A DNA stretch of 45,544 nucleotides from positions 1 through 45,544 of IMG/VR virus record IMGVR_UViG_3300014205_000077; one strand, 5' to 3'. The stretch comes from a virus. The notes below the pieces were generated by a model, which worked only from the letters and a program-made list of their open reading frames with translations, ran no database searches and was not told the origin of the DNA. Below, piece after piece: positions 5,755 to 27,339 of the stretch (positions are counted from its first letter, which is position 1; every line of letters starts with the position of its first letter). A program made the translations under genes and the position numbers.

Positions 5755-6792
5755 TTATCCTCCTATTGGTATTGCAACTCCACAATCTGGACTCGGACAT
5801 ACCCAGAATGGTTTTCCATCCACATCTATCTTGTCCATATTCTCTCCACAAGTGCATTTTCTTGTTGTAGGAACTACGCCTTTCGCATCCTGTTGTGTCT
5901 TATAAAGAGCAGTAAGAGTTGCTCCTAATCCTATAACTCCCTTGTCTTTATCTCCAGTCCATTTGTCTATACATTTCTTTATTACATAGTAGTCATTCCC
6001 TGCCAATGCTTTTCCAAACTCAAAGTAAGTATCTTTTGCCAACTTTTTGTTCTCTTCGCTATCCCAGTTTGTATGTTGTAACAAATGAGATTTTGTAATG
6101 CTCGCAATCAATGAACTCATCTTCGTAGATGCTTTATATTTCGGCTCTACAGATGGAGGTGGAGGAGGAGTTGGAGTTATCGTTTCGGCATTCTTTCTTG
6201 GTAACTTGTCAAGGAAACTAATATTCGCCTCCGCTTGAGTAAAAGTATATTTAGGATGGTTCGTTGCTATCTGATTATACTTGTCAACATCTATCTTTAC
6301 TATGTTCAGTAGAGACAATATCTTTGTGATTTGTTCTGGAGTTATCAATGGCTCTGGCTTACCTACTTCTATCTTTTTGTCTGTTGCTTTTCCACCTCTT
6401 CCCTGGGCAACCTCTGCATCATTGTCATCTTGGGTTGGCGTAAGCATAATCATTGAAGCCAGTCCATATCTTCTTGCATAAGTTACTGCACTTCCATTAG
6501 ATTGTGGGTCATTCTTTACTGGATTGATTTTTAATTTACCACTAATCCATTCTCCAGAAGTATGTAACAATATCGTCTCCATTACATTTTCCCCACTAAC
6601 CACATCTGATGGTTGCAACACGCACAACCCGTTCTTCGTAAGTATTTCTTGACAGGAATCCCAACACATCTTTAGGTCGGCATATTTTGAGTGGAAAAAA
6701 GGATTCACTTTTCCCGCATATACAGAAGTTAGTTCTTTCTGAACTGCATTCATCGCCTTTGCTATTTCTATTATACTTTCTGAATGTTCCAT
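5755..6792 (-). CDS. erf: ERF-family single-strand annealing protein with C-terminal zinc ribbon
   Basis: NPFFHSKYADL, LLHTSGEW, GSAVTYARRYGL and DDND segments are typical of ERF; C-terminal CTCG...CPSPDCG. Confidence 0.85.
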   Translation of the reverse strand: MEHSESIIEIAKAMNAVQKELTSVYAGKVNPFFHSKYADLKMCWDSCQEILTKNGLCVLQPSDVVSGENVMETILLHTSGEWISGKLKINPVKNDPQSNGSAVTYARRYGLASMIMLTPTQDDNDAEVAQGRGGKATDKKIEVGKPEPLITPEQITKILSLLNIVKIDVDKYNQIATNHPKYTFTQAEANISFLDKLPRKNAETITPTPPPPPSVEPKYKASTKMSSLIASITKSHLLQHTNWDSEENKKLAKDTYFEFGKALAGNDYYVIKKCIDKWTGDKDKGVIGLGATLTALYKTQQDAKGVVPTTRKCTCGENMDKIDVDGKPFWVCPSPDCGVAIPIGG

Positions 6793-6998
6793 TATTCCTC
6801 CGTTGCATATACCGTGTAATCATATGCTCTAACTATCCCACCAACTATACTCCCATCATTATTTTCAATTACACAGGAAGTCTGGGTTACAAAATCTATA
6901 TTCTCATTCCCAGTAAAAGCACTTTCCAACCAAACGTTTGCTAACTTCTCTACATCTTCTGGTGTTCCTTTGAACACCTTGACCTTATGTTTATCCAT
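6792..6998 (-). CDS. hypothetical protein (68 aa)
   Basis: ORF coupled to erf. Confidence 0.5.
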   Translation of the reverse strand: MDKHKVKVFKGTPEDVEKLANVWLESAFTGNENIDFVTQTSCVIENNDGSIVGGIVRAYDYTVYATEE

Positions 6999-7007
6999 CT
7001 TCCCCTC

Positions 7008-7208
7008 CTATTTTATCTCACGAATTCTTCTATAACTTAAATTAATCCATTTAGAAACATCATAATATTTATCGTTTATTGCTTTAAAACTTATTTTTCC
7101 ATCTATAATATAAAATACACAAACATCTATATATTCCGCAGAATCTGGAGAGACTTCTAAAGACACCCATTTAATCAGTTAGTGTTTACCGTATAGTTTT
7201 ATCTTCAT
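7008..7208 (-). pseudogene. small all-beta paralog family member interrupted by an in-frame TAA at codon 10 (7179-7181)
   Basis: My translation MKIKLYGKH*LIKWVSLEVSPDSAEYIDVCVFYIIDGKISFKAINDKYYDVSKWINLSYRRIREIK; carries family motif IDGKISFKA. Confidence 0.5.
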
Positions 7209-7226
7209 AGTTTACGTAGCCATATA

Positions 7227-7430
7227 CTATTCTTCTGTCAATTCAATAATATTGTGCGTGATCCTATTAACAGTAATCTCAACCACATTATTTGTTTCAC
7301 TGTTTACACCTGTGCATCTGTGCATATATATTTTTCTATCAGGGCTAATCAAAAACCACAATATAAGTCCGCTATCAGTCCATACGGATGGGGTATGGGT
7401 TAGACTTGCTTCTGCAAGATATGCTTTCAT
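7227..7430 (-). CDS. small all-beta paralog family member (67 aa)
   Basis: ATGA coupling at 7427-7430; SPDRKIYMHRC motif; C-terminal ELTEE. Confidence 0.55.
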   Translation of the reverse strand: MKAYLAEASLTHTPSVWTDSGLILWFLISPDRKIYMHRCTGVNSETNNVVEITVNRITHNIIELTEE

Positions 7431-7618
7431 TCTTCCACCTCTCGTATCATTCCTTCGCTTAAGTTCAATGGGCATCCTATATGTTTATACATATGTTTAT
7501 ATATAGATATTTTTCCAGAACGCAATAAAGCAAATTGAACAATCTTTTCTCTTACTATTCCGTTATCCATTAACATAACTTCAACGTCATTCCCAGAATT
7601 GCACAACGATATTTTCAT
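7427..7618 (-). CDS. small all-beta paralog family member (63 aa)
   Basis: MKISL start; SGKISIYKH motif; ATGA coupling at both ends. Confidence 0.6.
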   Translation of the reverse strand: MKISLCNSGNDVEVMLMDNGIVREKIVQFALLRSGKISIYKHMYKHIGCPLNLSEGMIREVEE

Positions 7619-7824
7619 TCTATCTCCGTCAATTTAAGATGGTCAAGATTGAGCAATCCTCTTCCTACTGGCGTTCTCATATCATTATTAACCCAAAAAC
7701 AATTCCCAAAATATATTTTATCACCAACTATCATAAAACATCCAATCCGTATGTCCCGTATCGTAGGAGTTGTTATACTTACAAACACAAAATCATTATT
7801 TGTTATTTCAAGTTCTATAGTCAT
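7615..7824 (-). CDS. small all-beta paralog family member (69 aa)
   Basis: VGDKIYFGN motif; ends TEIE, with GGAGATAGAATGA embedding the next gene's RBS. Confidence 0.6.
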   Translation of the reverse strand: MTIELEITNNDFVFVSITTPTIRDIRIGCFMIVGDKIYFGNCFWVNNDMRTPVGRGLLNLDHLKLTEIE

Positions 7825-7825
7825 T

Positions 7826-8803
7826 TTATTCTTTAATCTCTTTTAGCCCAAATCTTGTTGTCAATTCAACTCCAGCATATTGGGATAAGGTCTCATCCTT
7901 CTTTAATATTTTCTTGAAATTGGTAATATTACAAGTCAATACTTTTTTGTCAACATATTCTTTCACTTTCTCCAAACTATTTAATGAATTGACAAATGCC
8001 ATTGTGTCAACCGTAGTTTTTGTTGAATCAAAATTCCCTATTTGTTTATCTCCGAAAGTTATTATCCCTTCTTTCTCGCATAAAGCTTTGACTAAATTCT
8101 CGCTTGCTGATGCCTGTGCCTTACTTCTCAACCACTCTTGAATTATAATGTCTCTATTCTCTCCTTTTAAGGGACTATTGCAAGACAGTGGATGATTGCA
8201 CCAATTACACCACGCACTTGGATTTATATAATTATGTTCCTTGCCCATCACTTCTTTAGCCAATGTGATATCCCTTGCGATTTCATTCTTTAACATACCC
8301 ATACTTGAGCCATCGTAAGTTTCCCCATACAACAACCATCCTCTTGGGGCGGAATATATTGCAGTATGTATCTTGTCTAATGGGTTTATATCTAACAAAG
8401 CATACGCATAATACCTTAATTGTTTCTGATATAGTTCGGACACATCATACAAATATGCAGACTTACAATCTACTATTAACAAATCCCCATTAGGCAAGAC
8501 AAGAACCTTATCTATCTTATACCTAACACTATCTTCTCCCATTAAGAAACCACCAGCAAATTCCTCATCCCATTGAGATTGGAATGGTGGCAAATTCTTA
8601 GGTGTGTGTTCTGTTATTCTTTCCAATTCTGTCCAATTCCCACTCTTTATCCCAGAATAGAAAGCTAAGTGCATCGACTTCCCATTCGCTTGGTTTTCTG
8701 TCTCAAGTATCTCCTGAACAACTCCTTTCAATCTAAGTGCCTTTTCTCGGTCACATGGCACACATAGATTGGAATGACTATAATGTATCCTTTCTTCACT
8801 CAT
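7826..8803 (-). CDS. Cas4/RecB-like PD-(D/E)xK exonuclease with Fe-S cysteine cluster
   Basis: LLIVDCKSA (D-x-K), QLRYYAYAL (QxxxY), N-terminal Cys plus CNWCNHPLSC (C-x2-C-x5-C). Confidence 0.75.
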   Translation of the reverse strand: MSEERIHYSHSNLCVPCDREKALRLKGVVQEILETENQANGKSMHLAFYSGIKSGNWTELERITEHTPKNLPPFQSQWDEEFAGGFLMGEDSVRYKIDKVLVLPNGDLLIVDCKSAYLYDVSELYQKQLRYYAYALLDINPLDKIHTAIYSAPRGWLLYGETYDGSSMGMLKNEIARDITLAKEVMGKEHNYINPSAWCNWCNHPLSCNSPLKGENRDIIIQEWLRSKAQASASENLVKALCEKEGIITFGDKQIGNFDSTKTTVDTMAFVNSLNSLEKVKEYVDKKVLTCNITNFKKILKKDETLSQYAGVELTTRFGLKEIKE

Positions 8804-8969
8804 CTTTTACCTCCTGTATAAAATTATAAAACGCATTCCATTTGAAAAAAACTATCTTACCGTTTTCTATTGTAAAACTAAAAACTATTGTATCTCCAAG
8901 CCAACATCTAACTCTTTTCGCATCTTCTTTATCATCTCCGTAAGCTTTATTGTTTAACTTTATTTTCAT
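8796..8969 (-). CDS. small all-beta paralog family member (57 aa, below the ORF-track cut-off)
   Basis: My translation MKIKLNNKAYGDDKEDAKRVRCWLGDTIVFSFTIENGKIVFFKWNAFYNFIQEVKDE; ATGA coupling at 8966-8969. Confidence 0.55.
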   Translation of the reverse strand: MKIKLNNKAYGDDKEDAKRVRCWLGDTIVFSFTIENGKIVFFKWNAFYNFIQEVKDE

Positions 8970-9160
8970 TCTATCTCCAGTATTTCTTCCCTTCTATCCA
9001 TATTGGCAACAACTGAAATAAATGCCGACTGTTTTATATTCCATTTATAAATACATAACTTACCTTTTCCCTCTATTTTTTTTACAATGCTAATAATTTT
9101 TATATCTCCAACATTAATTCTTATTATCTCATTATCTATTCTTTCTAATATTATATTCAT
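8966..9160 (-). CDS. small all-beta paralog family member (64 aa)
   Basis: GKGKLCIYKW motif; ends LEIE; ATGA coupling. Confidence 0.6.
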   Translation of the reverse strand: MNIILERIDNEIIRINVGDIKIISIVKKIEGKGKLCIYKWNIKQSAFISVVANMDRREEILEIE

Positions 9161-9336
9161 TTTATTGTTTCTATTTTACGTATTTTATTCTTATTGATAT
9201 TCTCCATACGATATAAATAATATTTATATAAACTTATCTTGTTTTTATCATATGTCTGTAGAAATCCAACTACAAGTTGCTTATCTAACTTAATTGCAAC
9301 TTCACGCTCATCATATATTTCTATTGTTATTTTCAT
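9157..9336 (-). CDS. small all-beta paralog family member (59 aa, below the ORF-track cut-off)
   Basis: My translation MKITIEIYDEREVAIKLDKQLVVGFLQTYDKNKISLYKYYLYRMENINKNKIRKIETIK. Confidence 0.55.
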   Translation of the reverse strand: MKITIEIYDEREVAIKLDKQLVVGFLQTYDKNKISLYKYYLYRMENINKNKIRKIETIK

Positions 9337-9343
9337 ATATTCC

Positions 9344-9592
9344 TTACATTAAACTTAATTGCTGTGGTGGTTTCTTTACCCATATATATTTGTGTCTATC
9401 AACTGTTCCATCTTCTTTTTTCGGATGTTCTATAATCTTACTCTCACAAAGAATTCTTGCCTTTCTTGTGGCAGTCCCGCCCATCATACCACCAAAACCA
9501 ATTCCCCATTTCTCAATATCCCAAGTTGCCATCTCTCCACCATTGCATATTTCTTCTTCTATATACTTCCTAACCTTTTCTAATTGTGTCAT
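9344..9592 (-). CDS. hypothetical protein (82 aa), possibly a winged-helix protein
   Basis: ORF within the array; no family motif. Confidence 0.5.
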   Translation of the reverse strand: MTQLEKVRKYIEEEICNGGEMATWDIEKWGIGFGGMMGGTATRKARILCESKIIEHPKKEDGTVDRHKYIWVKKPPQQLSLM

Positions 9593-9600
9593 TCCTCCCC

Positions 9601-9798
9601 CTAATCTATCTCTTGTATTGCGTTTCTTATTATCATATATACAATATTGGCATCATCAACATTTACACTTCCAATAAATCCATTGTCTGACTTTCGGAAT
9701 TGGAATACCCTACAATTATCTACTCTAACTTCTCGTATCCAAAAGATTGCATAAGCCCTATCTTCATTGTATCTCCTCCATACCTTCAAAATAGCCAT
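9601..9798 (-). CDS. small paralog family member, start uncertain (possible frameshift relative to the coupled ATG at 9767)
   Basis: SDNGFIGSV motif; ends IQEID; canonical coupled ATG 9765-9767 opens only a 15-codon frame. Confidence 0.4.
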   Translation of the reverse strand: MAILKVWRRYNEDRAYAIFWIREVRVDNCRVFQFRKSDNGFIGSVNVDDANIVYMIIRNAIQEID

Positions 9799-9976
9799 CT
9801 GCTTCTATATCACGATTCTCTTCTGTATTAGTAAAAACGCAATCGCATAAATCGTATTTCCATAGTCCAATCTTTTTCTTTGTAATATTCAAACTAAAAA
9901 GACTTACATCTTCTTCCTCTTCGTGAATTGCTTTACAACAAATCGTTCCCAATTCTACTATCAGTTTTATTTTCAT
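9764..9976 (-). CDS. small all-beta paralog family member (70 aa)
   Basis: MKIKL start; KKKIGLWKY motif. Confidence 0.55.
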   Translation of the reverse strand: MKIKLIVELGTICCKAIHEEEEDVSLFSLNITKKKIGLWKYDLCDCVFTNTEENRDIEADGYFEGMEEIQ

Positions 9977-10182
9977 TCTATTATTCTTGGTTTTGTGCCC
10001 TTTCCCATATTAAACAATCTGGTAAATTGGTTAGTCCACATTTTCATTACAATCTTATTGTTTATAATCCTAAAATCAACAACAGCCCAATGGGAAGTGT
10101 CTATCCCCACTTTATCATATAGTCTCAACCGAATACATCCTTCGCTTTTTATCAAATCTTCTAATCCAAATTTACATTTCAT
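9973..10182 (-). CDS. small all-beta paralog family member (69 aa)
   Basis: INNKIVMKMW motif; ends RIIE; ATGA coupling. Confidence 0.6.
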   Translation of the reverse strand: MKCKFGLEDLIKSEGCIRLRLYDKVGIDTSHWAVVDFRIINNKIVMKMWTNQFTRLFNMGKGTKPRIIE

Positions 10183-10183
10183 T

Positions 10184-10366
10184 TTATTCTATTTCCTTTA
10201 GGCTGTGATTTGTCCCCGTTGTATTACACATATCTTCATTTTGCCAATCCCAATAGTGCAAAACTATTTTGTCATTGCACATAAAAAATTCAAACAGAAT
10301 ATAATCCATATATCTAACTTCTAACTTTTTCTCTGATGAGAATCGTTGGGTTATATATATCTTCAT
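10184..10366 (-). CDS. small all-beta paralog family member (60 aa)
   Basis: MKIYI start; CNDKIVLHYW motif; ends KEIE. Confidence 0.6.
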   Translation of the reverse strand: MKIYITQRFSSEKKLEVRYMDYILFEFFMCNDKIVLHYWDWQNEDMCNTTGTNHSLKEIE

Positions 10367-10367
10367 T

Positions 10368-10625
10368 TTACAAGTCCTTTATTTTACCACCTTCAATCGT
10401 CTCAAACACTTTTGGATTTAAGTTTTTCATCTTCCTTAAAGATAATTTCCCATTATCCATTACTTGCAACTGTATCACTTTGTTGAATGGCTCGTCAGTC
10501 CCTTTCTCTTTACAACTTATCGTAACCAAATTGCCACCATCAGTTGACTCTGCTATAAATTCAAAATCCCCTATTGTGGCGGAGTCCCCCTCGCCACTAT
10601 CAACTTCTCTAATTTCTTCATCCAT
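10368..10625 (-). CDS. paralog family member with acidic N-terminal extension and a Gly-Gly five residues before the C-terminus (85 aa)
   Basis: MDNGKLSLRKM family motif; ...FETIEGGKIKDL end; RBS AAGGGGGAATAAA-ATG directly after the JAB gene. Confidence 0.6.
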   Translation of the reverse strand: MDEEIREVDSGEGDSATIGDFEFIAESTDGGNLVTISCKEKGTDEPFNKVIQLQVMDNGKLSLRKMKNLNPKVFETIEGGKIKDL

Positions 10626-10645
10626 TTTATTCCCCCTTTTTAAGG

Positions 10646-11515
10646 TTAATATCCATCTCTTCCATACTGTTTATTAAACAAATCCTCTTGTTGATTCAAC
10701 AAATCCTCTTGTTGATTCAACAAATCCTCTTGTTGATTCAACAAATCTTCTGCCGCCTTATCACTGTTCCATTCCCTTATTGCCAAGTCAATCTTTGCGT
10801 CTTTATCTGTCTTTGGCGACTTACTATCCTTTCTAATCCAAATTCCCGATGCTGGGTAGTATTGGTAATTATCAAACAAATACTGTTTGGTTTCGGCATC
10901 CAATAACGCAGAAAGGAATTGCTCTGGTCTATCTTTTGTTAATTTAGGTTTATCATAGGCAACCGTAGATGGTGCAGTATAAACGTGGTCTCGTATATTC
11001 CTTTCTATAGCATTAAATATATCTGCTGGTATTTCTATAGGAGTTTCAATCGTTGCCTTTACCATAAAGTAAAGGCTATCAGAGACTTTCAATCTCAACC
11101 TATTGTCTATTATATTCCCATCTGGGTCTAATAGAATAGAGCAATCGTAATTCTTGTTAATACTTTCGTGGTCATCTACACTAAAGGAACTTACCGAAGA
11201 TGGATGTCTATGAAAAAACACATTCCATTCTGAACTTGGGTGGTCTATAATATCCACCGAAGCATACTTCACTTCTTGGGTAGGAACTAATATCTCCTGC
11301 TTTAATTCAAATCCCTTATTGGTCGTAACTCCCTTGCAAACAAAGGCGAATTCATCACCTTTATGTTTCTCATTTACCTTTATGCACATATTCTTAATGA
11401 GACTTTGGAAATCCTGTGCAATTCTAATAACAGGTTCTTTCACATTCACCCCATTATCCCAACGAGTAAGGTTGTCTTGAGAATTGGGATTCTTCCCCCA
11501 ATTATGTTTTCCCAT
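10646..11515 (-). CDS. JAB/MPN (JAMM) metallopeptidase, deubiquitinase-like, with C-terminal heptad repeats
   Basis: Exact JAMM motif H-x-H-x7-S-x2-D in FHRHPSSVSSFSVDD (codons at 11171-11212); RBS TAAGGAGGAAGA-ATG; C-terminal EDLLNQQ x3. Confidence 0.85.
   Translation of the reverse strand: MGKHNWGKNPNSQDNLTRWDNGVNVKEPVIRIAQDFQSLIKNMCIKVNEKHKGDEFAFVCKGVTTNKGFELKQEILVPTQEVKYASVDIIDHPSSEWNVFFHRHPSSVSSFSVDDHESINKNYDCSILLDPDGNIIDNRLRLKVSDSLYFMVKATIETPIEIPADIFNAIERNIRDHVYTAPSTVAYDKPKLTKDRPEQFLSALLDAETKQYLFDNYQYYPASGIWIRKDSKSPKTDKDAKIDLAIREWNSDKAAEDLLNQQEDLLNQQEDLLNQQEDLFNKQYGRDGY
10679..10752. repeat. 21-bp tandem repeat x about 3.5 (caaatcctcttgttgattcaa) encoding EDLLNQQ heptads in the JAB C-terminus
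   Basis: Three perfect copies at 10679-10741 plus a diverged partial copy. Confidence 0.9.
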
Positions 11516-11524
11516 TCTTCCTCC

Positions 11525-12742
11525 TTACCAAACATCTTTTGTAGCTTTCAAATCGTTAATAAGCTTTCGTAAATCCTTACATAAACTATTATCTATTTTG
11601 TAGTAAGCAGAATCAAAATTTATAATCTCTAATAGAGTTTGTATCTTAGTTACAAATTCTACTATTGTGCATTGTGCCATATCTCCCAAACAAATATCTC
11701 CATTCTCTTCTGTATGATAATTTCTAATGTTCGGGTGTGGAAATTCGCCCTTCAATCGTGCCAATGCACAATCAATCTTCCCACTATCTCCAATATGCCC
11801 AGAGATATCATATACTTCTCTCTTCTTTCCCATTTCATCTGGGATTGGATAGTATTTTCCCTCATACACACATTTCCTGGGAATAATATTCATTTCCAAT
11901 CCCAACGTATTATCTGAAAGAGTAACCTTATACCTATCCTTTATTGACATTGCATCTGTAAACCCCTTTGCAAAAACTTTATGTTCATTCCTTTTCGTTT
12001 CTTCCAATTCTCTATTCATAATTTCTAATTTTGAGATTATCTGTCTTTCCTTTATACTAAAAAGAGTATTCATTGTGTTTTTGTATTGGGCTATCTGTTT
12101 GTTATAGATTTCCCTATAAACCAATCCAATAGCATTTTCTTCGGAAGAGGAAATTTCTTTCATCGTAGTTTCTATCTCATACCATTTCCCCTTTACATTC
12201 ACTGTAGGTTTTGACATCAACACGGACAAGGTATTCTCTTGGCTATCACCCACTACATTCAAACTACCTGTATGCAAGAAAGAACTTCCAAAATTAGAAA
12301 CGCATTCCATTATAACAGATTCGCAATCTTGCAAGAAGTTATCCCTATATTTGAATTCATTCCAGAACTTCTTAAATCCATCACAATGGATGCCAAAGTT
12401 TCCATCTTTGGCGTGATATGTTTTCCCTGTATCGTCAAATTCAATATTCCACAGTTTCTTTAATTTGCTATAGAAAACTGAATGCCTAATTCTACCAGCT
12501 ATTACTTCATCTTTGAACCCTTTTTTTATCCCGTCTTTGTCAAAGATTCCGTATAGCGTTTTATCTTTAAGTTTCTCAAGGAACAATTCTTCCTTAATTT
12601 CCTTCTCCGTTTTCACTGTCGGAACTATCGCTTCCTCCGATGTTGACAAAGGCACTGCTGGGGTCTCCGACACCGATGGATTTAACTCCACCATTCCCGA
12701 TTGTGGGGTTGGATTCGTTGTGTCTTGCGTTATAGGTTGCAT
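11525..12742 (-). CDS. E2 (UBC-like) ubiquitin-conjugating-enzyme-like protein with a roughly 270-aa N-terminal extension
   Basis: FPHPNIRNYHTEENGDICLGD (HPN 11729-11737; Cys codon 11690-11692) followed by FVTKIQTLLEIINFDSAYY; GGAGG RBS favours ATG 12742 over GTG 12751. Confidence 0.8.
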   Translation of the reverse strand: MQPITQDTTNPTPQSGMVELNPSVSETPAVPLSTSEEAIVPTVKTEKEIKEELFLEKLKDKTLYGIFDKDGIKKGFKDEVIAGRIRHSVFYSKLKKLWNIEFDDTGKTYHAKDGNFGIHCDGFKKFWNEFKYRDNFLQDCESVIMECVSNFGSSFLHTGSLNVVGDSQENTLSVLMSKPTVNVKGKWYEIETTMKEISSSEENAIGLVYREIYNKQIAQYKNTMNTLFSIKERQIISKLEIMNRELEETKRNEHKVFAKGFTDAMSIKDRYKVTLSDNTLGLEMNIIPRKCVYEGKYYPIPDEMGKKREVYDISGHIGDSGKIDCALARLKGEFPHPNIRNYHTEENGDICLGDMAQCTIVEFVTKIQTLLEIINFDSAYYKIDNSLCKDLRKLINDLKATKDVW

Positions 12743-13475
12743 CTTCTTCACCTCCTATCTCTTCTACGATTGGCTTTTCTACTTTTATCGTTTTTATCAC
12801 TTTCGGTTTCTTTATCTTTTTTACTTCTCCAAACATCTTATTAAGCAAATCCACTACATCAATAGTAATTCTTGCAGTTGGATTATATGATTTGCTTTTC
12901 TTCACATCTTCTCGGAACAATACATTCATACACAACATCCAAGCGTTAAGTATCTGGGGCATTAAAAAAGCACCATCTGTATAACTAACAGATTCTCCCC
13001 ATACTGCTTCCATATTTGGATTCATCCAACCGCTAACACTCCTTCCGTTATTCCCAATATGTAATGGGAACGCTTCTTTCAATACGGGAAGATGCACATC
13101 CCTACAATCCAAGAAAACTATATTTGGATTTTTCTTGTCATCTAAAAACACCTTCTGCAACTCCTCATACTTGGCATCCCATTGTTCTACAGCCATATAA
13201 TCCATTCTATAGCTTAATAGGATTTCTGCCAAAGCTTGCACCTTTTTCTTACCAATATCTTCCAATCGGTAAGGACTTCTATTCAAATTAACTGCCTCCA
13301 CTGAATCAAAATCCACAAGAACTATCTTGCGACATCCTGACAGTGCGAGGAAAAGGGACACCCAACTCCCAACTCCACCACATCCTATGATTACAGCTTT
13401 TTCTGGTATCTGCAACCCTTTTATACTTAATTGCCTATCATATATATTCATAGGCAATTCTGTTATTCCATCCAT
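12594..13475 (-). CDS. E1-like (ThiF/MoeB/UBA family) adenylyltransferase
   Basis: IYDRQL, GCGGVGS nucleotide-binding loop, VLVDFDSVEAVNLNRS, LDCRD; Lys-rich then acidic tail overlaps the E2 start. Confidence 0.85.
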   Translation of the reverse strand: MDGITELPMNIYDRQLSIKGLQIPEKAVIIGCGGVGSWVSLFLALSGCRKIVLVDFDSVEAVNLNRSPYRLEDIGKKKVQALAEILLSYRMDYMAVEQWDAKYEELQKVFLDDKKNPNIVFLDCRDVHLPVLKEAFPLHIGNNGRSVSGWMNPNMEAVWGESVSYTDGAFLMPQILNAWMLCMNVLFREDVKKSKSYNPTARITIDVVDLLNKMFGEVKKIKKPKVIKTIKVEKPIVEEIGGEEDATYNARHNESNPTIGNGGVKSIGVGDPSSAFVNIGGSDSSDSENGEGN

Positions 13476-13490
13476 TTTTCTCTCACCCCC

Positions 13491-13679
13491 TTAATCTATT
13501 TGTTTCATCTCTTTGTATCCTCCGACAACATTACTATATTTTGTATTCAATTCGTAATGCTTTTTCATTACTATTTTATAGTTACCATTCCTTTCAAAAT
13601 GCACAATAAATGGATTCATTACTCCTTCAATAAAAACTTGAATTGTATTCCCTCCAATTTTTTTAATAGATATTTTCAT
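13491..13679 (-). CDS. small all-beta paralog family member (62 aa)
   Basis: MKISI start; NGNYKIVMKK motif; ...NVVGGYKEMKQID end. Confidence 0.6.
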   Translation of the reverse strand: MKISIKKIGGNTIQVFIEGVMNPFIVHFERNGNYKIVMKKHYELNTKYSNVVGGYKEMKQID

Positions 13680-13680
13680 T

Positions 13681-13863
13681 TTATTCTACCTCTTCTATTT
13701 GTCCATCATTGTTATTGCAAGAATTTTTATTCACAAAAAAATATTTATGGATACATATCTTCCCATTTGCAATGTAAAAATAAATTATCATTGTATTAAA
13801 TTTCATATCGTTCCCAAAAAGTGTAACATCAAGGCGTTCGCTTCCTTGCAATTTTATTTTCAT
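13681..13863 (-). CDS. small all-beta paralog family member (60 aa from coupled ATG 13863)
   Basis: MKIKLQ start overlaps the upstream stop (ATGA); ANGKICIHKY motif; ends IEEVE. Confidence 0.6.
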   Translation of the reverse strand: MKIKLQGSERLDVTLFGNDMKFNTMIIYFYIANGKICIHKYFFVNKNSCNNNDGQIEEVE

Positions 13864-14072
13864 TCTATTGTTTTTATATCGCAATCATAATCATTGTCAA
13901 AATTTATATATTCACCATTACATCCTTGATTTTTATACAACACAATCTTTCGTTTTAGAATTCTAAAAAATGCTATATTCCCACAATGGATATGTTTTCC
14001 ATTTTCTATTAAATGTATTTGATAGTCTTTTATCTGATGGCATTCTATTTCTTTTACTTCTATTTTAATCAT
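13860..14072 (-). CDS. small all-beta paralog family member (70 aa)
   Basis: KRKIVLYKN motif; ends KTIE. Confidence 0.6.
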   Translation of the reverse strand: MIKIEVKEIECHQIKDYQIHLIENGKHIHCGNIAFFRILKRKIVLYKNQGCNGEYINFDNDYDCDIKTIE

Positions 14073-14073
14073 A

Positions 14074-14277
14074 TTAATCTATTTCCTTCAAATTCCCACC
14101 TTTTACATAAAGAGAGTTTATTCCTGTTTCTTTTTTTAATATTATTTTATTATTCCTCTTTTTGAACATCACTAAATGTCCATTCCCAATGTTTCTTTTA
14201 TCTATAAATATAGCAACTGATATCCCACCATATACGTAATTTGATTTATTGTCAAATACTTTTATTTCTATTTTCAT
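14074..14277 (-). CDS. small all-beta paralog family member (67 aa)
   Basis: MKIEIK start; RNNKIILKK motif; ...YVKGGNLKEID end. Confidence 0.6.
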   Translation of the reverse strand: MKIEIKVFDNKSNYVYGGISVAIFIDKRNIGNGHLVMFKKRNNKIILKKETGINSLYVKGGNLKEID

Positions 14278-14377
14278 ATTAGTTAAAGGAATCCGCAGTC
14301 TGGCACAATCTTTTTATCTGCGGTTTAGGCAAAGGAGGTGAATCCGTATAGCCCCGCCAGCGATTCCCATTACTTAT

Positions 14378-14671
14378 TTATCCTTTCTTTGGCACTTCTA
14401 AACGATTTATATAAATCGTCTGTGCGGTGGTTAAGGGGAAAATTGAAGGCATCATATCTCTACCTGCACTGTCCTGTATCGTTGAAGTTGCAAAACTCGC
14501 ATCCTTTGCAATCTTCCTTACAGTATTCGCAGTAAGAGGACATTTCTCTTCAATCCTCTTATTCCCTGGGAGGACTATCGTTACATACTCATCTTTCTTT
14601 ACTATTTTCTTTGCAACTGCTTTTTTTGCAACTATCTTTTTAGTTGCCGATTTTTTCGTTACTTTTTTCAT
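14378..14671 (-). CDS. Lys-rich N-terminal tail fused to a putative beta-grasp (ubiquitin/ThiS/MoaD-like) domain ending in a terminal Gly
   Basis: KKVTKKSATKKIVAKKAVAKKIVKK tail; then a beta-beta-alpha-beta-beta pattern (YVTIVLPG / RIEEKC / TANTVRKIAKDA / TSTIQD / TIYINRLE); last codon GGA (14381-14383) before TAA. Confidence 0.45.
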   Translation of the reverse strand: MKKVTKKSATKKIVAKKAVAKKIVKKDEYVTIVLPGNKRIEEKCPLTANTVRKIAKDASFATSTIQDSAGRDMMPSIFPLTTAQTIYINRLEVPKKG

Positions 14672-14924: not shown

Positions 14925-15236
14925 TTATTCTTTCAATATAATTAAACCTTTATCGCCAGAGCCAGAGCCAGAGCAATCGCCAGAGCCATCGTCAGAGCCA
15001 TCGCCAGAGCCAGAGCCAGAGCCATCGCCAGAGCCATCGCCAGAGCCATCGCCAGAGCCATAGCCATCGCCAGAGCCATAGCCATCGCCAGAGCCATAAC
15101 CAGAGCCATCGCCAGAGCCATCGCCAGAGCCATCGCCATCGCCAGAGCTATCGCCATCGCCATAGCCATAACCAGAGCTATAGCCATAACCAGAGCCATC
15201 GCCAGAGCCATCGCCATCGTTTTTTATTTTTTCCAT
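14925..15236 (-). CDS. hyper-acidic Gly/Asp/Ser/Tyr repeat protein, (GDGSG)n, about 103 aa
   Basis: MEKIKNDGDGSGDGSGYGY...GSGDGSGDGSG...; RBS AAGGGGAG before ATG 15236; underlying 6/12-nt DNA periodicity. Confidence 0.6.
   Translation of the reverse strand: MEKIKNDGDGSGDGSGYGYSSGYGYGDGDSSGDGDGSGDGSGDGSGYGSGDGYGSGDGYGSGDGSGDGSGDGSGSGSGDGSDDGSGDCSGSGSGDKGLIILKE
14946..15218. repeat. degenerate 6/12-nt tandem repeat (gccagagccatc-like) encoding (GDGSG)n
   Basis: Visible periodicity across about 270 nt. Confidence 0.9.
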
Positions 15237-15610
15237 ATCGCAACTCCCCTTATGCTTATCCTTGCCTGTTCTGTGCAAGGTATTATCTCTATTGCTTCTG
15301 TTAAAATTATTCTTGTAACTTCACAAGGAAATTTACAAGAATTTGGATTTGCCACCCCATCCATTGCTAATTGAGACAAAGAAGCCGCACCATTCCAATA
15401 CCATAACCTTCTGGCATTCTTCATTTCAACTTCTTTCCCATTCCTTTTGACTAAATTCCCTGCAAAAACACCTGCGGATTGTGTTCTAACTACAACATAA
15501 TCCTTTTCTACCTTTTTAGAGACAGAAACTGAATCTAATGGAATGTATTTTTTCCCATTTATTTCCACAACATTCCCACCTGTTTCTTTTATACTCAATC
15601 CTTTAATCAT
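15224..15610 (-). CDS. conserved-looking hypothetical protein (128 aa)
   Basis: GGGAGG RBS favours ATG 15610; contains ARRLWYWNGAASLSQLAMDG. Confidence 0.6.
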   Translation of the reverse strand: MIKGLSIKETGGNVVEINGKKYIPLDSVSVSKKVEKDYVVVRTQSAGVFAGNLVKRNGKEVEMKNARRLWYWNGAASLSQLAMDGVANPNSCKFPCEVTRIILTEAIEIIPCTEQARISIRGVAIWKK

Positions 15611-18952: not shown

Positions 18953-19029
18953 TGGGGTAAGGGGTGGGAATTAGACCAACGATTACTTGTTTCACAGACA
19001 AGCGCCTTATCCACTTGGCTACCCTTACC
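18953..19029 (-). tRNA. tRNA-His (anticodon GUG) with encoded G-1 and 3' CCA
   Basis: Hand-folded cloverleaf: G-1, acceptor GTAAGGG/CCCTTAC, D-loop AGTGGATA, anticodon stem CTTGT/ACAAG with loop CTGTGAA, T-arm GTTGG-TCTAATT-CCCAC (one mismatch), C73, CCA. Confidence 0.75.
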
Positions 19030-19331: not shown

Positions 19332-19403
19332 AGCCACTGGGGAGAATCGGACTCCCAGTCCCCTGTTTACAAAACAGGCGCTTGTCCATTAAGCTACAGT
19401 GGC
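19332..19403 (-). tRNA. tRNA-Thr (anticodon UGU)
   Basis: Perfect cloverleaf: GCCACTG-TA-GCTT-AATGGAC-AAGC-G-CCTGT-TTTGTAA-ACAGG-GGACT-GGGAG-TCCGATT-CTCCC-CAGTGGC-T. Confidence 0.85.
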
Positions 19404-20370: not shown

Positions 20371-21867
20371 TTAATAACCCGCATTCCCAAAATAATTTGT
20401 TCTATTAAAATATTCTCCCTCTTGTTCTGCTTTCCCTGGGATAAACTCATTCATTTCTATTGCACCATACTGGTCGCATTCCATAATGTGTTCATAATAA
20501 CCGTCTTTCATTGGTTTGTCTTGCTTTTTATCATATAAATAACAACCTTTCATTGCCTCTATTGTAATAGGACAACGGTTTTTGTCAACAAAATATTTAC
20601 CAGAGTTCATCCATTCCTGTATTATCTTCACTCTGTCATTAGGAGACATCCACCTATGAGTCGGATGTATGCCAAAACCCTCAAGTATCCCTATAGAAGT
20701 AACCTCTGATTTGTCAGAACTCTGTTGTCCAGCAGGGTCGCACTGGTCTTCCCATCTTGCATTTGGAAATAAGCCAGCGATATCTTCCAACACTACTTTT
20801 ATAAACTCTGACAACACTATCTTAAACCCCATCCATTCTTTTAACTTAACTTTTTCGTTATTTCTATTTATTTTCCATATGCAACACGCAGGTCTAATGT
20901 AACCAAAATCCCACTGTCTCCATAAGATGTCCCCCTCAACATAACATCTATCGTCTCCCAAGTCTATTGTCGTATCTATTGCCATTTCATCTTTCCATAG
21001 AGACGCAAAAACTGGAGTCCCCTGCACTTTCGTAAAGTCTATTTCATATTCTTGTCTAAATTGGTCGTAAGGCATTCCCTCTAATACGAGTTTCTTCCAT
21101 TTCTCACTTCTCTTTGTCTCATCCGCAGTATAATGCAAGAACATACAACGAAATTTGTTGATTTCATTTGTCCAACATCTAATGCCAGTGTCCGTATTCG
21201 GAAAGATACTCTGTTTGTGCCCATCAAATAATGACTTATAAAAGAACGTTTCCCCATTTGGAGACGAAATTCCAGTGTATCTACCAGTTGTCCCCAATGT
21301 TGGTAACGCAGAAGTGAACGCTTCCTGCGCATTTTCTTGGAAAGCTAACTCATCGGCAAGAATACCTGTTGACGTGTAGGTTCTTGGACTATCACTATCT
21401 TGAGATATTGCGTGTATGGTTGAATTGTTAGTAACTATCTTAAACATTGGTGGTTGTTTGCTTGTTTTTACCTCATACATATCTTGTATTGACTTAGGTA
21501 ACTGTTTATACATATATATTACCCTTGACAATAGAGATAACGGACTATCAAAACCAGCCATTTCTTCCTTTTTGCTCTGGAAGAAGATATAAGAGCCAGG
21601 CTTTGATAAACATTCCCACAAATACAATGCACAAAACAACCAAGAACACATAAGTTGACGAGATTTAGCTATTAACAACCTACGATTGTTTTTCCATTCC
21701 TCTGTTGTCCTTCTTAAATACCTTTTGTTAGGGAATCTATGCCTACCACCGCTCTGCGGGTCAAAGGTATACACAAAATGAGTTAAGAAAAACCACGGGT
21801 CTCGCATTGCCAATTCCCATTCAAGTCGTAGTTTCTTTAATTGTAATTGGTCGTCAAGTGTTATCAT
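20371..21867 (-). CDS. terL: terminase large subunit
   Basis: 498 aa; LLIAKSRQLMCSW ATPase-region segment, Walker B-like GILADELAF, C-terminal nuclease-like half; sits next to a small-terminase-like gene. Confidence 0.8.
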   Translation of the reverse strand: MITLDDQLQLKKLRLEWELAMRDPWFFLTHFVYTFDPQSGGRHRFPNKRYLRRTTEEWKNNRRLLIAKSRQLMCSWLFCALYLWECLSKPGSYIFFQSKKEEMAGFDSPLSLLSRVIYMYKQLPKSIQDMYEVKTSKQPPMFKIVTNNSTIHAISQDSDSPRTYTSTGILADELAFQENAQEAFTSALPTLGTTGRYTGISSPNGETFFYKSLFDGHKQSIFPNTDTGIRCWTNEINKFRCMFLHYTADETKRSEKWKKLVLEGMPYDQFRQEYEIDFTKVQGTPVFASLWKDEMAIDTTIDLGDDRCYVEGDILWRQWDFGYIRPACCIWKINRNNEKVKLKEWMGFKIVLSEFIKVVLEDIAGLFPNARWEDQCDPAGQQSSDKSEVTSIGILEGFGIHPTHRWMSPNDRVKIIQEWMNSGKYFVDKNRCPITIEAMKGCYLYDKKQDKPMKDGYYEHIMECDQYGAIEMNEFIPGKAEQEGEYFNRTNYFGNAGY

Positions 21868-23502: not shown

Positions 23503-23530
23503 TTGACAAACCTTATATGATTGTTATAAT
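23503..23530 (+). promoter_or_regulatory. rightward (structural arm) consensus promoter TTGACA-16-TATAAT
   Basis: cTTGACAaaccttatatgattgtTATAAT; about 18 nt identical to the promoter at 38855. Confidence 0.75.
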
Positions 23531-23543
23531 GTTGCATATTATA

Positions 23544-25193
23544 ATGGAAAACGCTAAAGCAATAAATAAGTTAAGGAATAGAATAGACTCTGCTGAAAGT
23601 TATCAGAAGCCATATAGAGAGAGTTGGGACAATCAACAGAGAATATGGGAAAGTATAATTGAGCCAGCAAAGAAGTTAAAATTAGATAATGCTGGGCGTT
23701 CTGCTTTGTTTGTTCCTTACACTTTTAGTTTAACGGAATGGATTATAGAGGATTTACTTACTAAGTTAATAGGGATACATCCTTTAGTTAAACTTCAAGG
23801 AGTCGGGACAACTCCCTCACAAGTAGCTGTAGGGCAACAGACACTTGTTGATTTGCAACTTCACTTAAATCATATGCAGAGAGCATTAGAGAAAGCTGTA
23901 AGACAGATGGTCAAACACGGAAACGGAGCTTTATTTAATTCTTGGAATCCAAACGATTTGAGTTATACTGGTTGTTATCTTGAATGGGTTAGTATCTATG
24001 ATTTGCTTTTAGACAGCAAGGCAACTTCGTTTGAAGATTGTGATTGGGTGGTTAGAAAGAAAGAAGTTAGTTATGAATGGTTGTATAATAGACCAAAAAG
24101 CAAATATAAAGATATAGATAAGGTAAAGAAAGCAAATGGACAATCGTATTTAATAGACAACCAAGAAGAGATTATTAATAAGTCTCGCAGAATAGTTCCC
24201 GAAGATGAACAACTGGTTCAACTCTACGAAGAGTGGGATAAAAATTCAGAGACTTGGAAGATACTTGCAAACAAGGAAGTTATGATTAAGGAATCAAAAA
24301 CTCCTTTTAATCACAAAGAACTTCCTTTCTCTTGGTTTTCTAATTACAAAAGAGAACACGTCATCTATGACAAGGGCGATATAGAGTTGCTTGAGGACAG
24401 CCAGAACGAACTGAACGCTTCTACTAACTTGATAAGGGATAGTGAAAGATTGAACGTGTCTAAACTGTTATGGAAAAGACGTGGAGCAATGATTACGAAC
24501 AAAGACATTGAGAATATGTATTGTGGGAAACCGATAGAAGTTACAAGCAAGGAGGACTTTGGGGAACTTGCTCATACTCCGTTATCTTCTGAATCTTACA
24601 ATTCAAGAGAAAGACTTAAACAAGAAATGAATGATGTCTGTGGCGCACCCGACCCTTTGCGTGGAGCGCCCAACCAACGTCAAGAGCTTGCGACTACAAT
24701 GAGTTTACTGCGGCAGGGGGGGCAAGTGAGGGGCAACTATAAAATAGGCAATATTTCGCTTGCTTTGTGCAATTTGGCAAGACAAATAGTTAGCAACAAT
24801 TATCAGTTTATCTTTATGCCCTTGCCACAATCTATATTCCCAAATAACACTTCCTTCCAAGACATAACAGAAATGTATGGAGAGTTTCTTTATATCCCAG
24901 AATTGTATCTTTTGTCTATGAGTTTACAGGAACGTAGAACAAACGCAAAAGAGTTATATAAAGAAACTATGAATGACCCATTTGTCAATCCGCAGAAACG
25001 ACTGGACTATCTTTTGGATAGTTATGAGATACTTAATAAAGAGGAATGGTTTAGCCAACAGCCACAGATAACAGCGCAAACCGCTGGACAGGCATTGGGT
25101 GGACAAAATGGAGTAGCGCCAAACGGAATGGGTGGGAATGGTTTTAATACAAATATGAGTCAGATGCTGTCGCAAGCAAAACAAGGACAATAA
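23544..25193 (+). CDS. putative portal protein (549 aa from ATG 23544)
   Basis: Size and position upstream of scaffold and capsid; upstream in-frame ATGs (23517, 23529) lie inside the promoter. Confidence 0.6.
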   Translation: MENAKAINKLRNRIDSAESYQKPYRESWDNQQRIWESIIEPAKKLKLDNAGRSALFVPYTFSLTEWIIEDLLTKLIGIHPLVKLQGVGTTPSQVAVGQQTLVDLQLHLNHMQRALEKAVRQMVKHGNGALFNSWNPNDLSYTGCYLEWVSIYDLLLDSKATSFEDCDWVVRKKEVSYEWLYNRPKSKYKDIDKVKKANGQSYLIDNQEEIINKSRRIVPEDEQLVQLYEEWDKNSETWKILANKEVMIKESKTPFNHKELPFSWFSNYKREHVIYDKGDIELLEDSQNELNASTNLIRDSERLNVSKLLWKRRGAMITNKDIENMYCGKPIEVTSKEDFGELAHTPLSSESYNSRERLKQEMNDVCGAPDPLRGAPNQRQELATTMSLLRQGGQVRGNYKIGNISLALCNLARQIVSNNYQFIFMPLPQSIFPNNTSFQDITEMYGEFLYIPELYLLSMSLQERRTNAKELYKETMNDPFVNPQKRLDYLLDSYEILNKEEWFSQQPQITAQTAGQALGGQNGVAPNGMGGNGFNTNMSQMLSQAKQGQ

Positions 25194-26133: not shown

Positions 26134-27339
26134 ATGCCGACAACGATAATTACAAAACCTTTAGCCACTGACCAGATAAATTCTGCGCAGATGGTTATTG
26201 ATATGAGGGATGATATATATCTCTTAAAACCAAAGAGATATCCATTCCTTAATTTTTTGAATGAGATGGGAAAAGAGCAATGCAACGCTCCGAAGTTTGA
26301 ATTTATATCGGATGTGTTACAGCCAAAACAGACACTTTGCACTGGCAACGTTGTTGCTACAGCTACAAGCATTGGCGTTACAACAAGCACAGCAAGCATA
26401 GCAAAGAAATGGGATATAGTTAGAGCATCTGCTTCTGGCGTAAATGCAGAGTCCACGTTTATAATCTTAGATTCAACTCCTACAGCTTCAACTTGGACAG
26501 TCAATAGACTTGGTAGTCAGACTGGTGGGTTAGATACTGCTATAGATTCTGGAGCAACCCTTACGATTATAGGTAATGCAATGGCAGAAGGAACTGGTAA
26601 ACCAGAGGGGAGAATTACGCAGACAACAAATGCCTATAACTACACACAGATATTCAAACATATAGTTCAGATTACTGGAACTATGCAGGCGACAAAAACA
26701 TATGGGCAAGACCAGAAAGCATATCAGAGGAACAAAATTGGGCAGGAACACGCAGTAGATATTGAAAGGGCTTTCCTTTTCAATCCTACTTATAGCATAG
26801 ACACTACAACTGCGGGAGAACCTCGTAGAACAACGGCTGGACTGCTTTCCTATATATCTACAAATGCAACAACGGTTGCCTTAACTACATTCAAGGGAAC
26901 TGGCGCAACTGGTGGATATATTGGTTACTGGCTTCCGTTGATGGAGAAATTGTTTGAATATGGTTCGGACACCAAGATATGTTTCTGTGGCAATGACCTT
27001 ATTACAGCGATATCTACTTGGGCAGAAACCAAATTGAATATTCAGTCTCCTGTTGTTCAATACGGAGTAAAGAGTTTTGACTTAGTAACTCCTTATGGAA
27101 CTCTTAAATTTGTAAGACACGGATTACTTACTGGAACATTCAGTGGATTGAATTTGTTTGTTGACCCAGCAGATGTGAAATACAGATTTTTGGGTGCAGA
27201 TGATAAGGGTTCAAGAGACCATAGACTTGAAACAAACGTTGAAGAGCCAGGATATGATGGTTTAGTTGATATGTATCTTACAGAATGCGGACTTGAATTA
27301 CACAATGAACTCTATCACGGAAAATTAGTGTTATCATAG
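26134..27339 (+). CDS. putative major capsid protein
   Basis: 401 aa, strong RBS GGGAGGAATAAAA-ATG, position after the scaffold gene. Confidence 0.65.
   Translation: MPTTIITKPLATDQINSAQMVIDMRDDIYLLKPKRYPFLNFLNEMGKEQCNAPKFEFISDVLQPKQTLCTGNVVATATSIGVTTSTASIAKKWDIVRASASGVNAESTFIILDSTPTASTWTVNRLGSQTGGLDTAIDSGATLTIIGNAMAEGTGKPEGRITQTTNAYNYTQIFKHIVQITGTMQATKTYGQDQKAYQRNKIGQEHAVDIERAFLFNPTYSIDTTTAGEPRRTTAGLLSYISTNATTVALTTFKGTGATGGYIGYWLPLMEKLFEYGSDTKICFCGNDLITAISTWAETKLNIQSPVVQYGVKSFDLVTPYGTLKFVRHGLLTGTFSGLNLFVDPADVKYRFLGADDKGSRDHRLETNVEEPGYDGLVDMYLTECGLELHNELYHGKLVLS

Follow-up and report, generated by a model that had tools for sequence, protein, structure and literature searches.

Between positions 7,008 and 14,277 of the IMG/VR virus record IMGVR_UViG_3300014205_000077 (45,544 nucleotides, here called the window over its whole length), about sixteen small open reading frames (ORFs) are packed beside and between the genes of a putative ubiquitin-like (Ubl) conjugation cassette with E1, E2-like and JAB-like proteins, and the question they raise is whether they form one gene family, how such a family arose, and whether it works with the cassette or for another purpose. 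The window holds the whole or nearly the whole genome of a 45-kb tailed phage from a landfill metagenome, and the ORFs lie in its leftward early arm (about 1-23,000), which also carries ERF, RusA, methyltransferase and PD-(D/E)XK nuclease genes. The results showed that the paralogy and the unusual scale of the family are real, and that its products are neither ubiquitin-like modifiers nor a conserved component of the Ubl-E1-E2-JAB cassette. The interpretation we put forward, to which we would give an even chance as a whole, is that of a multigene family private to this lineage and expanded by tandem duplication, which encodes small accessory early proteins that probably bind host or defence targets.

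All sixteen ORFs were found on the minus strand where a sequence-only reading of the window had placed them, and they are unquestionably coding, since a single in-frame stop occurs in 1053 codons in comparison to 104 ± 10 in shuffled sequences and 124 to 142 in the other two frames. Their products are 57 to 70 residues long, except one of 85 residues, with isoelectric points (pI) of 4.5 to 9.9, and neighbouring ORFs in the region overlap or are separated by at most 20 nucleotides. The following four blocks were distinguished:

7008-7824, minus strand: block A, four genes
8796-9336, minus strand: block B, three genes
9601-10625, minus strand: block C, five genes
13491-14277, minus strand: block D, four genes

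The blocks sum to 3170 nucleotides, or 6.96% of the window, in agreement with the roughly 7% given by the sequence-only reading. The same reading had described two tandem arrays flanking the E1-E2-JAB genes, of which the adjacency holds, as blocks C and D adjoin the JAB and E1 genes, respectively, but not the number. The downstream run is broken by the PD-(D/E)XK nuclease gene (7826-8803) between blocks A and B and by an 82-residue ORF unrelated to the family (9344-9592) between blocks B and C, and seven of the sixteen members (blocks A and B) flank the nuclease gene next to ERF, not the cassette.

Whether the sixteen products are related was evaluated with leave-one-out (LOO) hidden Markov models (HMMs), using 158 other window ORFs (45 to 100 residues, all frames) and 800 composition-matched shuffles as controls. 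The scoring was also carried out with the termini trimmed (four N-terminal and seven C-terminal residues), and the cores were aligned pairwise (120 pairs) and expressed as shuffle Z scores. The members and their scores are as follows:

7008-7208, minus strand: interrupted member, with an in-frame TAA at codon 10 (7179-7181) directly after a typical MKIKL start; LOO 9.4 bits; pairwise Z at most 3.3
7227-7430, minus strand: robust member; LOO 20.3 bits, trimmed 20.7
7427-7618, minus strand: robust member; LOO 18.9 bits, trimmed 13.0; Z 6.0 to 13681
7615-7824, minus strand: probable (weak) member; LOO 6.6 bits, trimmed 2.5; Z 4.0, 3.7 and 3.3; GDKIYF motif
8796-8969, minus strand: robust member; LOO 22.5 bits, trimmed 21.5
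8966-9160, minus strand: member with weak HMM score and strong pairwise link; LOO 10.5 bits; Z 7.4 to 8796
9157-9336, minus strand: robust member; LOO 19.1 bits, trimmed 16.4
9601-9798, minus strand: doubtful member; LOO 7.3 bits; no Z above 1.6; DNGFI in place of NGKI, with loss of the conserved Lys; 35-nucleotide overlap with the upstream gene
9764-9976, minus strand: member supported partly by its termini; LOO 18.2 bits, trimmed 3.6; Z 4.1 and 3.7
9973-10182, minus strand: robust member; LOO 18.4 bits, trimmed 18.0
10184-10366, minus strand: robust member; LOO 28.3 bits; modelled with AlphaFold2
10368-10625, minus strand: probable member; LOO 8.0 bits; Z 5.7, 5.6, 4.4 and 4.2 to robust members; 85 residues including an acidic N-terminal extension of about 25 residues
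13491-13679, minus strand: robust member between the Ubl and E1 genes; LOO 21.4 bits, trimmed 20.4
13681-13863, minus strand: robust member; LOO 28.1 bits; modelled with AlphaFold2
13860-14072, minus strand: robust member; LOO 21.2 bits, trimmed 14.8
14074-14277, minus strand: member; LOO 18.9 bits, trimmed 8.0; Z 6.4 to 13491

The LOO scores were 18.2 to 28.3 bits, with no decoy scoring higher, for eleven of the sixteen (those starting at 7227, 7427, 8796, 9157, 9764, 9973, 10184, 13491, 13681, 13860 and 14074), and 6.6 to 10.5 bits for the remaining five (7008, 7615, 8966, 9601 and 10368). The highest decoy among the 158 ORFs of the same genome reached 14.6 bits, and the full-family HMM, applied to 8553 foreign phage ORFs of 64 other viral loci, gave a noise level of no more than 10.2 bits. 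In the pairwise comparison the mean Z was 1.55 and 22.5% of the pairs exceeded 3; these alignments tied 8966 (7.4) and 10368 (5.7 and 5.6) firmly to the family, and 7615 (at most 4.0) and 7008 (3.3) moderately, while 9601 was left untied, with a maximum Z of 1.6 and without the conserved Lys. In general, eleven members are robust, four probable and one doubtful, and the earlier count of about 16 paralogs is a fair one.

An explanation which dispenses with homology was also considered, in which the resemblance would come from AT-rich composition, from coupling signals shared at both ends of the genes and from a generic hairpin turn. It draws on the nucleotide constraint at the termini, on the three members (9764, 7615 and 10368) which fall into noise once the termini are trimmed, on the missing pairwise link of 9601, and on the recurrence of the central motif in unrelated proteins. 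Against it, nine members keep 13 to 22 bits after trimming with no same-genome decoy above them, the controls including shuffles of the same composition, and about 15 conserved columns, among them N50 and I56, are spread over the whole length. This explanation is largely refuted for the core members and is very improbable for the family, and the compositional bias which the sequence-only reading had itself named as the alternative is set aside for the core members by the trimmed HMMs and the shuffles.

Outside these conserved columns the alignment is near-random. Alternating hydrophobic residues are conserved in four segments (I3/L5; V11/V13/L15; I26/V27/F29/I31; I36/L38), together with the N33-G34-K35 turn, K40, an aromatic residue at position 41, N45, and the C-terminal I56-x-E-I-E. 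The sequence-only reading had called the proteins all-beta and proposed structure prediction, and this description gained support of moderate confidence from AlphaFold2, which was run on 13681-13863 and 10184-10366 with the paralogs as the input alignment. The mean predicted local distance difference test (pLDDT) value was 69.5 for 13681-13863 (strands at residues 2-6, 10-16, 23-32 and 35-40) and 75.1 for 10184-10366, with 81 to 87 over residues 1-40 (strands at 4-8, 14-19, 22-30 and 33-38). Both models have the same topology, with four antiparallel strands in the first 40 residues or so, followed by a low-confidence tail, and no helix of four or more residues; the tail of 10184-10366 contains one three-residue turn. 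The scaffold would thus be a four-stranded antiparallel sheet built from two hairpins over about 40 residues; the N-G-K turn closes the second hairpin, and the conserved Asn and Ile positions fall in a less ordered tail of about 20 residues. Both faces of strand 3 are hydrophobic, so that this strand would probably be packed against the tail or against a partner. The products are best pictured as small cytoplasmic proteins on a fixed beta scaffold, and the wide spread of pI values is what would be expected for variable surfaces on a fixed core.

The central motif [ND][GN]K-I, to which the sequence-only reading had given weight, is indeed conserved, the K-I pair being found in 13 of 14 aligned sequences and its Lys in 13 of the 14 sequences of one alignment (A2) and in at least 90% of those in another (A1), but it reads as a generic turn. 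N-G-K is a classic type I' beta-hairpin turn, and comparable [NDE]-[GNEK]-K-[IY] hairpins were found in UBL5, AbrB/SpoVT and phage E2-like proteins without wider similarity to the family.

This local likeness bears on the possibility that the small proteins are themselves beta-grasp Ubl modifiers, forming an expanded repertoire for the cassette. The only PDB sequence-profile match was UBL5/Hub1, in which a stretch of 21 residues, NKIVLKKWYTIF..., resembles the turn and fourth strand of the family (NKIVLKKW...), and the MKIxL start followed by a hairpin resembles the ubiquitin N-terminus, MQIFV. The match has an E-value of 0.29, however, and hhalign gave a probability of 24% for the 21 columns in question and of 0.04% when the family was compared with the phage's own Ubl alignment; the models have neither the helix between strands 2 and 3 (at their moderate confidence) nor a beta-grasp topology, Foldseek returned no beta-grasp match and Pfam no Ubl match. 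No member ends in Gly or Gly-Gly, the last residue being E, D, K, Q or L (...EIE, ...QID, ...KDL), although Hub1 also lacks a C-terminal Gly-Gly, and a plausible separate Ubl is already encoded at 14378-14671. A Ubl identity of the family was rejected on these grounds and is extremely unlikely.

Another possibility suggested by the models is that the proteins are pairing or oligomerising subunits, for example of an AbrB/MazE-type swapped-hairpin barrel, acting as DNA-binding regulators or as antitoxin-like neutralisers through a flexible acidic tail such as MazE-type proteins add. The AbrB/SpoVT/MazE domain (PF04014) likewise consists of two hairpins in about 45 residues, its second hairpin, '...EIYVDDEKIILKKY', resembles the family motif (compare 'VDDEKIILKKY' in the AbrB/SpoVT C-terminal hairpin), and the two hydrophobic faces of strand 3 imply burial against a partner, next to a disordered tail. 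Yet hhalign gave a probability of 6% over 17 columns of the second hairpin only, with one of the reference sequences taken from a related viral locus (L005), no Pfam match to SpoVT_AbrB or MazE was obtained at an E-value of 1 or below, and the family has no inter-hairpin helix and no 'IP' motif. In addition, the pI range argues against a uniform DNA-binding role, and toxin-like partner genes are absent. A relationship to AbrB/SpoVT/MazE was accordingly rejected, and the oligomer explanation appears quite unlikely. Derivation from the beta-meander of E2/UEV proteins was also rejected, as hhalign gave a probability of 1.4% over 13 columns against eight phage E2 cores and no HPN or catalytic Cys motif is present in the members.

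Relatives outside the window, for which a profile search of phage and metagenome databases had been proposed, were not recovered. The window's own ORFs were all that was returned by a word-indexed search (5.8 billion proteins) and by an exhaustive hmmsearch run over 1.84 billion representatives. This result excludes close homologs only and does not extend to relatives at the distance which separates the paralogs; 10368 and 7008, two members absent from the query profile, likewise went unrecovered at this scale, and scores at the LOO level of 18 to 28 bits are not significant against 1.8e9 sequences. Searches of Pfam, PHROGs, NCBIfam and PADLOC with all members gave only single sub-threshold matches, each to one member (DUF6440 at 0.0065, DUF5448 at 0.034, PHROGs at 0.014 or above), and Foldseek searches of the PDB and BFVD with the two AlphaFold2 models gave nothing significant (best E-value 0.24 to 1.4). 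We found no description of such a family in the literature.

The gene junctions are informative about the origin of the array. Consecutive genes are joined by ATGA or TAAAATG stop-start sequences with a GGAG- or GAGG-like element 5 to 10 nucleotides upstream of the next start (consensus aGAgATAGAaTAAaATGAAaATA), and DNA repeats in 6900-14400 are essentially limited to these junctions (20 to 42 nucleotides, 77% to 90% identity). Isoleucine in the last five codons is encoded by ATA in 18 of 19 cases in comparison to 59% in the gene bodies. The shared MKI start reported earlier is therefore present but overlaps the conserved nucleotide junction and is not independent evidence at the protein level, and the same applies to the EIE end; as both coincide with junction signals, they owe at least as much to translational coupling as to the function of the protein. 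Similarity within blocks was about the same as similarity between blocks (mean Z of 1.60 and 1.53, respectively), and adjacent genes were no closer to each other than to others. Recent tandem duplication was rejected because of this lack of a within-block excess, which suggests that the duplications are old or that the copies have been reshuffled.

The data largely show that the family arose as a whole gene unit was duplicated repeatedly within the leftward early operon. Each unit comprises a Shine-Dalgarno-like sequence, the ATG and about 60 codons of an ORF, with a stop that overlaps or abuts the next start. The copies have since diverged to the present level of about 20% to 35% identity, in line with the strong divergence noted by the sequence-only reading, while the common scaffold was kept, and they may be expressed by serial translation through coupling and re-initiation. 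The interrupted copy at 7008-7208, whose TAA is present in all three datasets containing the same phage (JGI 3300037067, from the landfill study; ENA ERZ27247358; SRR6484325), is a probable pseudogene, or else gives a truncated product starting at GTG 7166, and as a nonsense copy it points to birth-and-death turnover.

The stop-interrupted copy could also be taken as a sign that these genes are largely neutral or selfish duplicates, such as packaging-length filler in slow decay, and the family is also AT-richer than its neighbours, with no homologs found elsewhere in the searches described. Such neutrality is difficult to reconcile with 15 intact ORFs whose DNA similarity has been erased outside the junctions, with one stop found where about 104 are expected, and with the conserved core positions. 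Intact ORFs and a conserved core in spite of such divergence require long-term purifying selection, and neutral filler is distinctly unlikely.

The relationship between the family and its neighbours was then considered with the following genes:

14378-14671, minus strand: Ubl candidate of 97 residues, not a family member; blastp 1e-5 to a 75-residue ORF directly upstream of E1 in locus L008
12594-13475, minus strand: E1, a ThiF-type adenylating enzyme; Pfam ThiF 8.6e-20; PADLOC Cap2-type E1-E2 models down to 3.6e-14
11525-12751, minus strand: E2-like protein; FPHPNI...GDICLGD read from the sequence; blastp 1.6e-7 to a 366-residue ORF of L005
10646-11515, minus strand: JAB/JAMM-like protein; HRHPSSVSSFSVDD, which fits HxHx7Sx2D; blastp 1e-18 to 1e-21 to ORFs of 194 and 198 residues in L008 and L005, respectively
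7826-8803, minus strand: PD-(D/E)XK nuclease; Pfam PDDEXK_1 E-value 0.001, below the Pfam gathering score; blastp 2.6e-7 to the L005 homolog

The identity of the E1 is solid as judged from its sequence, whereas the E2-like and JAB-like proteins had no match in the Pfam, PHROG, NCBIfam and PADLOC models or in PDB sequences. The start of the E2-like gene is ambiguous, as the longest ORF, from GTG 12751, overlaps E1 by 158 nucleotides and the gene callers give 363 (JGI) or 376 (ENA) residues. The E1 carries a low-complexity C-terminal extension of about 90 residues which is absent from its 202-residue relatives, and the C-terminus of the JAB-like protein contains a 21-nucleotide tandem repeat (10668-10751; three copies, EDLLNQQ) whose copy number varies between samples (289 and 282 residues). 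The product of 14378-14671 is likely the phage's Ubl; its N-terminal tail is rich in Lys and Ala and resembles histone H1 (weak NCBIfam H1-like matches), and it ends in a single Gly (...PKKG), while its counterparts next to E1 in L005 and L008 end in ...PYYEAK without a terminal Gly. A non-coding gap of 100 nucleotides (14278-14377), the largest in this tightly packed operon, separates the Ubl gene from the first family gene and contains an inverted repeat, CCGCAG-N19-CTGCGG. Just upstream of the Ubl region, 14925-15278 (minus strand) is an ORF of 117 residues and low complexity, with an abundance of Gly, Ser and Asp (GDGSGDGSGYG... repeats).

Relatives of the E1 (34% to 36% identity) were found in phage contigs of 36 to 41 kb, in which the cassette consists of a small ORF (75 to 85 residues), E1 (about 202), an E2-like protein (about 365; YHPN...VC[IL]GD), JAB (about 196) and an ORF of about 85 residues. 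The blastp values between the window and these relatives were 1e-24 to 1e-30 for E1, 1e-18 to 1e-21 for JAB, 1e-7 for the C-terminal part of E2 and 1e-5 for Ubl. A profile scan of IMG/VR gave 59 loci with E1 relatives, and the combined set comprised 64. Homologs of E1, E2 and JAB together were found in 12 of the 64, uncultured viral contigs from about seven lineages (L005-L011, L014, L018, L021, L031 and L035), and further loci hold E1 and JAB only. The co-occurrence with E1, E2 and JAB that the sequence-only reading had proposed to check was not observed, as no family member lay within 10 kb on either side of E1 in any of the 64 viral loci (8553 ORFs; best score 10.2 bits, E-value 0.35). The distance between Ubl and E1 is 57 to 74 nucleotides in L005 and L008 in comparison to 902 in the window, where four family genes sit, and the corresponding slots in L005 hold unrelated small ORFs. 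Since cassette homologs occur without the family, the cassette exists and is inherited independently of it, and the family looks like a lineage-specific insertion which expanded into several inter-gene slots of the early operon. Near the E1 gene of other E1-bearing viral contigs, small tandem sets of three to four paralogous ORFs with unrelated sequence were seen in L057-L061 (12450-12910), L044 (7392-8115) and L056 (14593-17772). A BLAST screen of the 64 other viral loci for clusters of small paralogs found at most three to four members, at a threshold which would miss most of the present family and so gives no fair estimate of rarity.

The sequence-only reading had suggested that the small proteins are substrates or partners of the conjugation enzymes, and in its broad form this means lineage-specific partners of the cassette, whether substrates, acceptor decoys or interchangeable specificity adaptors. 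Nine of the sixteen genes directly abut the cassette in one coupled operon, four of them between Ubl and E1 and five directly after JAB, and a nearly invariant Lys stands in the predicted exposed hairpin turn. These observations have to be set against the 12 homologous cassettes and the wider set of E1-bearing viral loci without the family, the wider Ubl-E1 spacing, the seven members which surround the nuclease gene instead, and the generic nature of the N-G-K turn, with similar hairpins in proteins of no detectable homology. The suggestion is left unsupported, and a partnership with the cassette seems unlikely. Its more specific form, in which the phage's own Ubl system would use a set of about 15 interchangeable small beta-proteins, with their turn-exposed Lys and variable surfaces, as acceptor decoys or specificity adaptors, is slightly less probable again.

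The lineage-private family of accessory early proteins is thus the interpretation we prefer, in which the products would act as small modules for protein binding, their variable surfaces directed at targets in the host or in defence, a role suggested by their position, size and variability. The genes occupy positions of the type which hypervariable small genes take in phage early operons. The inhibitor or decoy idea of the sequence-only reading is plausible in this general sense of small, surface-variable early proteins. Several observations weigh against this interpretation. The coupled operon shared with the Ubl-E1 interval and the JAB gene makes co-expression with the cassette likely; five of the sixteen members are not individually significant; the fold models are of moderate confidence and their input alignment was made of paralogs alone; and a single genome without polymorphism allows neither purifying nor diversifying selection to be quantified. 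The GC content by codon position also differs, being 0.37, 0.26 and 0.26 for the family in comparison to 0.44, 0.34 and 0.34 for the larger genes among and beside it; this AT-richness may stem from a separate origin, from relaxed constraint or from a bias in amino acids.

The remainder of the genome was characterised by the following genes:

5755-6792: ERF, adjoining the PD-(D/E)XK nuclease gene
20371-21867: TerL
23517-25193: portal gene, rightward structural arm
26134-27339: major head protein gene, rightward structural arm

Two phage-encoded tRNA genes lie on the minus strand, tRNA-His (GTG anticodon) at 18953-19028 and tRNA-Thr (TGT anticodon) at 19332-19403. Promoter-like sites were at background (58 in comparison to 50.6 ± 6.9), and terminator-like sites were above the shuffles (12 in comparison to 4.2 ± 2.1) without defining operon boundaries. 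The copies of the phage in the three datasets showed zero substitutions over the 8.5 kb compared, the sole difference being a 21-nucleotide indel in the JAB gene, and their contigs are circular permutations of one another, in keeping with a complete genome. Among 50,697 GenBank phages no match to the window was obtained at the nucleotide or protein level by megablast, blastn and tblastn with the region, the portal protein and JAB as queries; scans of IMG/VR with the single E2, E1, nuclease and portal proteins found no close relatives, and a homolog search with E2 returned the window's own protein only.

In terms of known systems, the closest parallel is with viral multigene families and gene accordions, such as the multigene family (MGF) families of African swine fever virus and the amplification of poxvirus K3L, which are known from large eukaryotic DNA viruses of 150 to 300 kb. 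The present family is similar in the tandem, same-strand expansion of a small accessory gene, in strong divergence and in the signs of birth and death (one nonsense copy), but differs in that 15 to 16 copies occupy 7% of a 45-kb tailed phage and are ancient, with DNA identity only at the junctions. Small early clusters for host takeover or anti-defence, such as the SPO1 host-takeover module, the T-even hypervariable regions and acr loci, normally consist of unrelated genes; tiny, packed and coupled ORFs in an early or recombination region without database homologs are common to both, whereas here one family supplies almost all of the genes.

The bacterial Bil/Bub-type Ubl-E1-E2-JAB (DUB) operons (bioRxiv 10.1101/2023.09.04.556158; bioRxiv 10.1101/2023.09.26.559546; Iyer et al. 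2006, PMC1779556) resemble the neighbouring genes in composition, with a Ubl candidate, a ThiF-type E1, an HPN-Cys E2-like protein and a JAMM-motif protein. The small family corresponds to no described component of these operons, and the present cassette is encoded by a phage and not in a host defence island; the Bil papers checked made no mention of phage-encoded versions.

In general, the analysis showed a new orphan family with an unusually large expansion for a 45-kb phage, which is a variant of the viral multigene family phenomenon and not a new kind of system. Genome size is tightly limited in tailed phages of about 45 kb, which rarely keep more than two to three paralogs, and fifteen intact, anciently diverged copies in such a size-limited genome imply that selection has long favoured a diversified set of these small proteins. 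The results set the family apart from the adjacent cassette, and the recurring phage-borne Ubl-E1-E2-JAB cassette merits a study of its own. If the adaptor explanation were true, the phage would encode a Ubl pathway with a diversified repertoire of substrates or adaptors. If instead the family members bind or inhibit factors of the host or of defence, they would represent a compact natural scaffold library of about 40 structured residues with a fixed core and free surfaces, and the equivalent in phages of the multigene families known from large DNA viruses.

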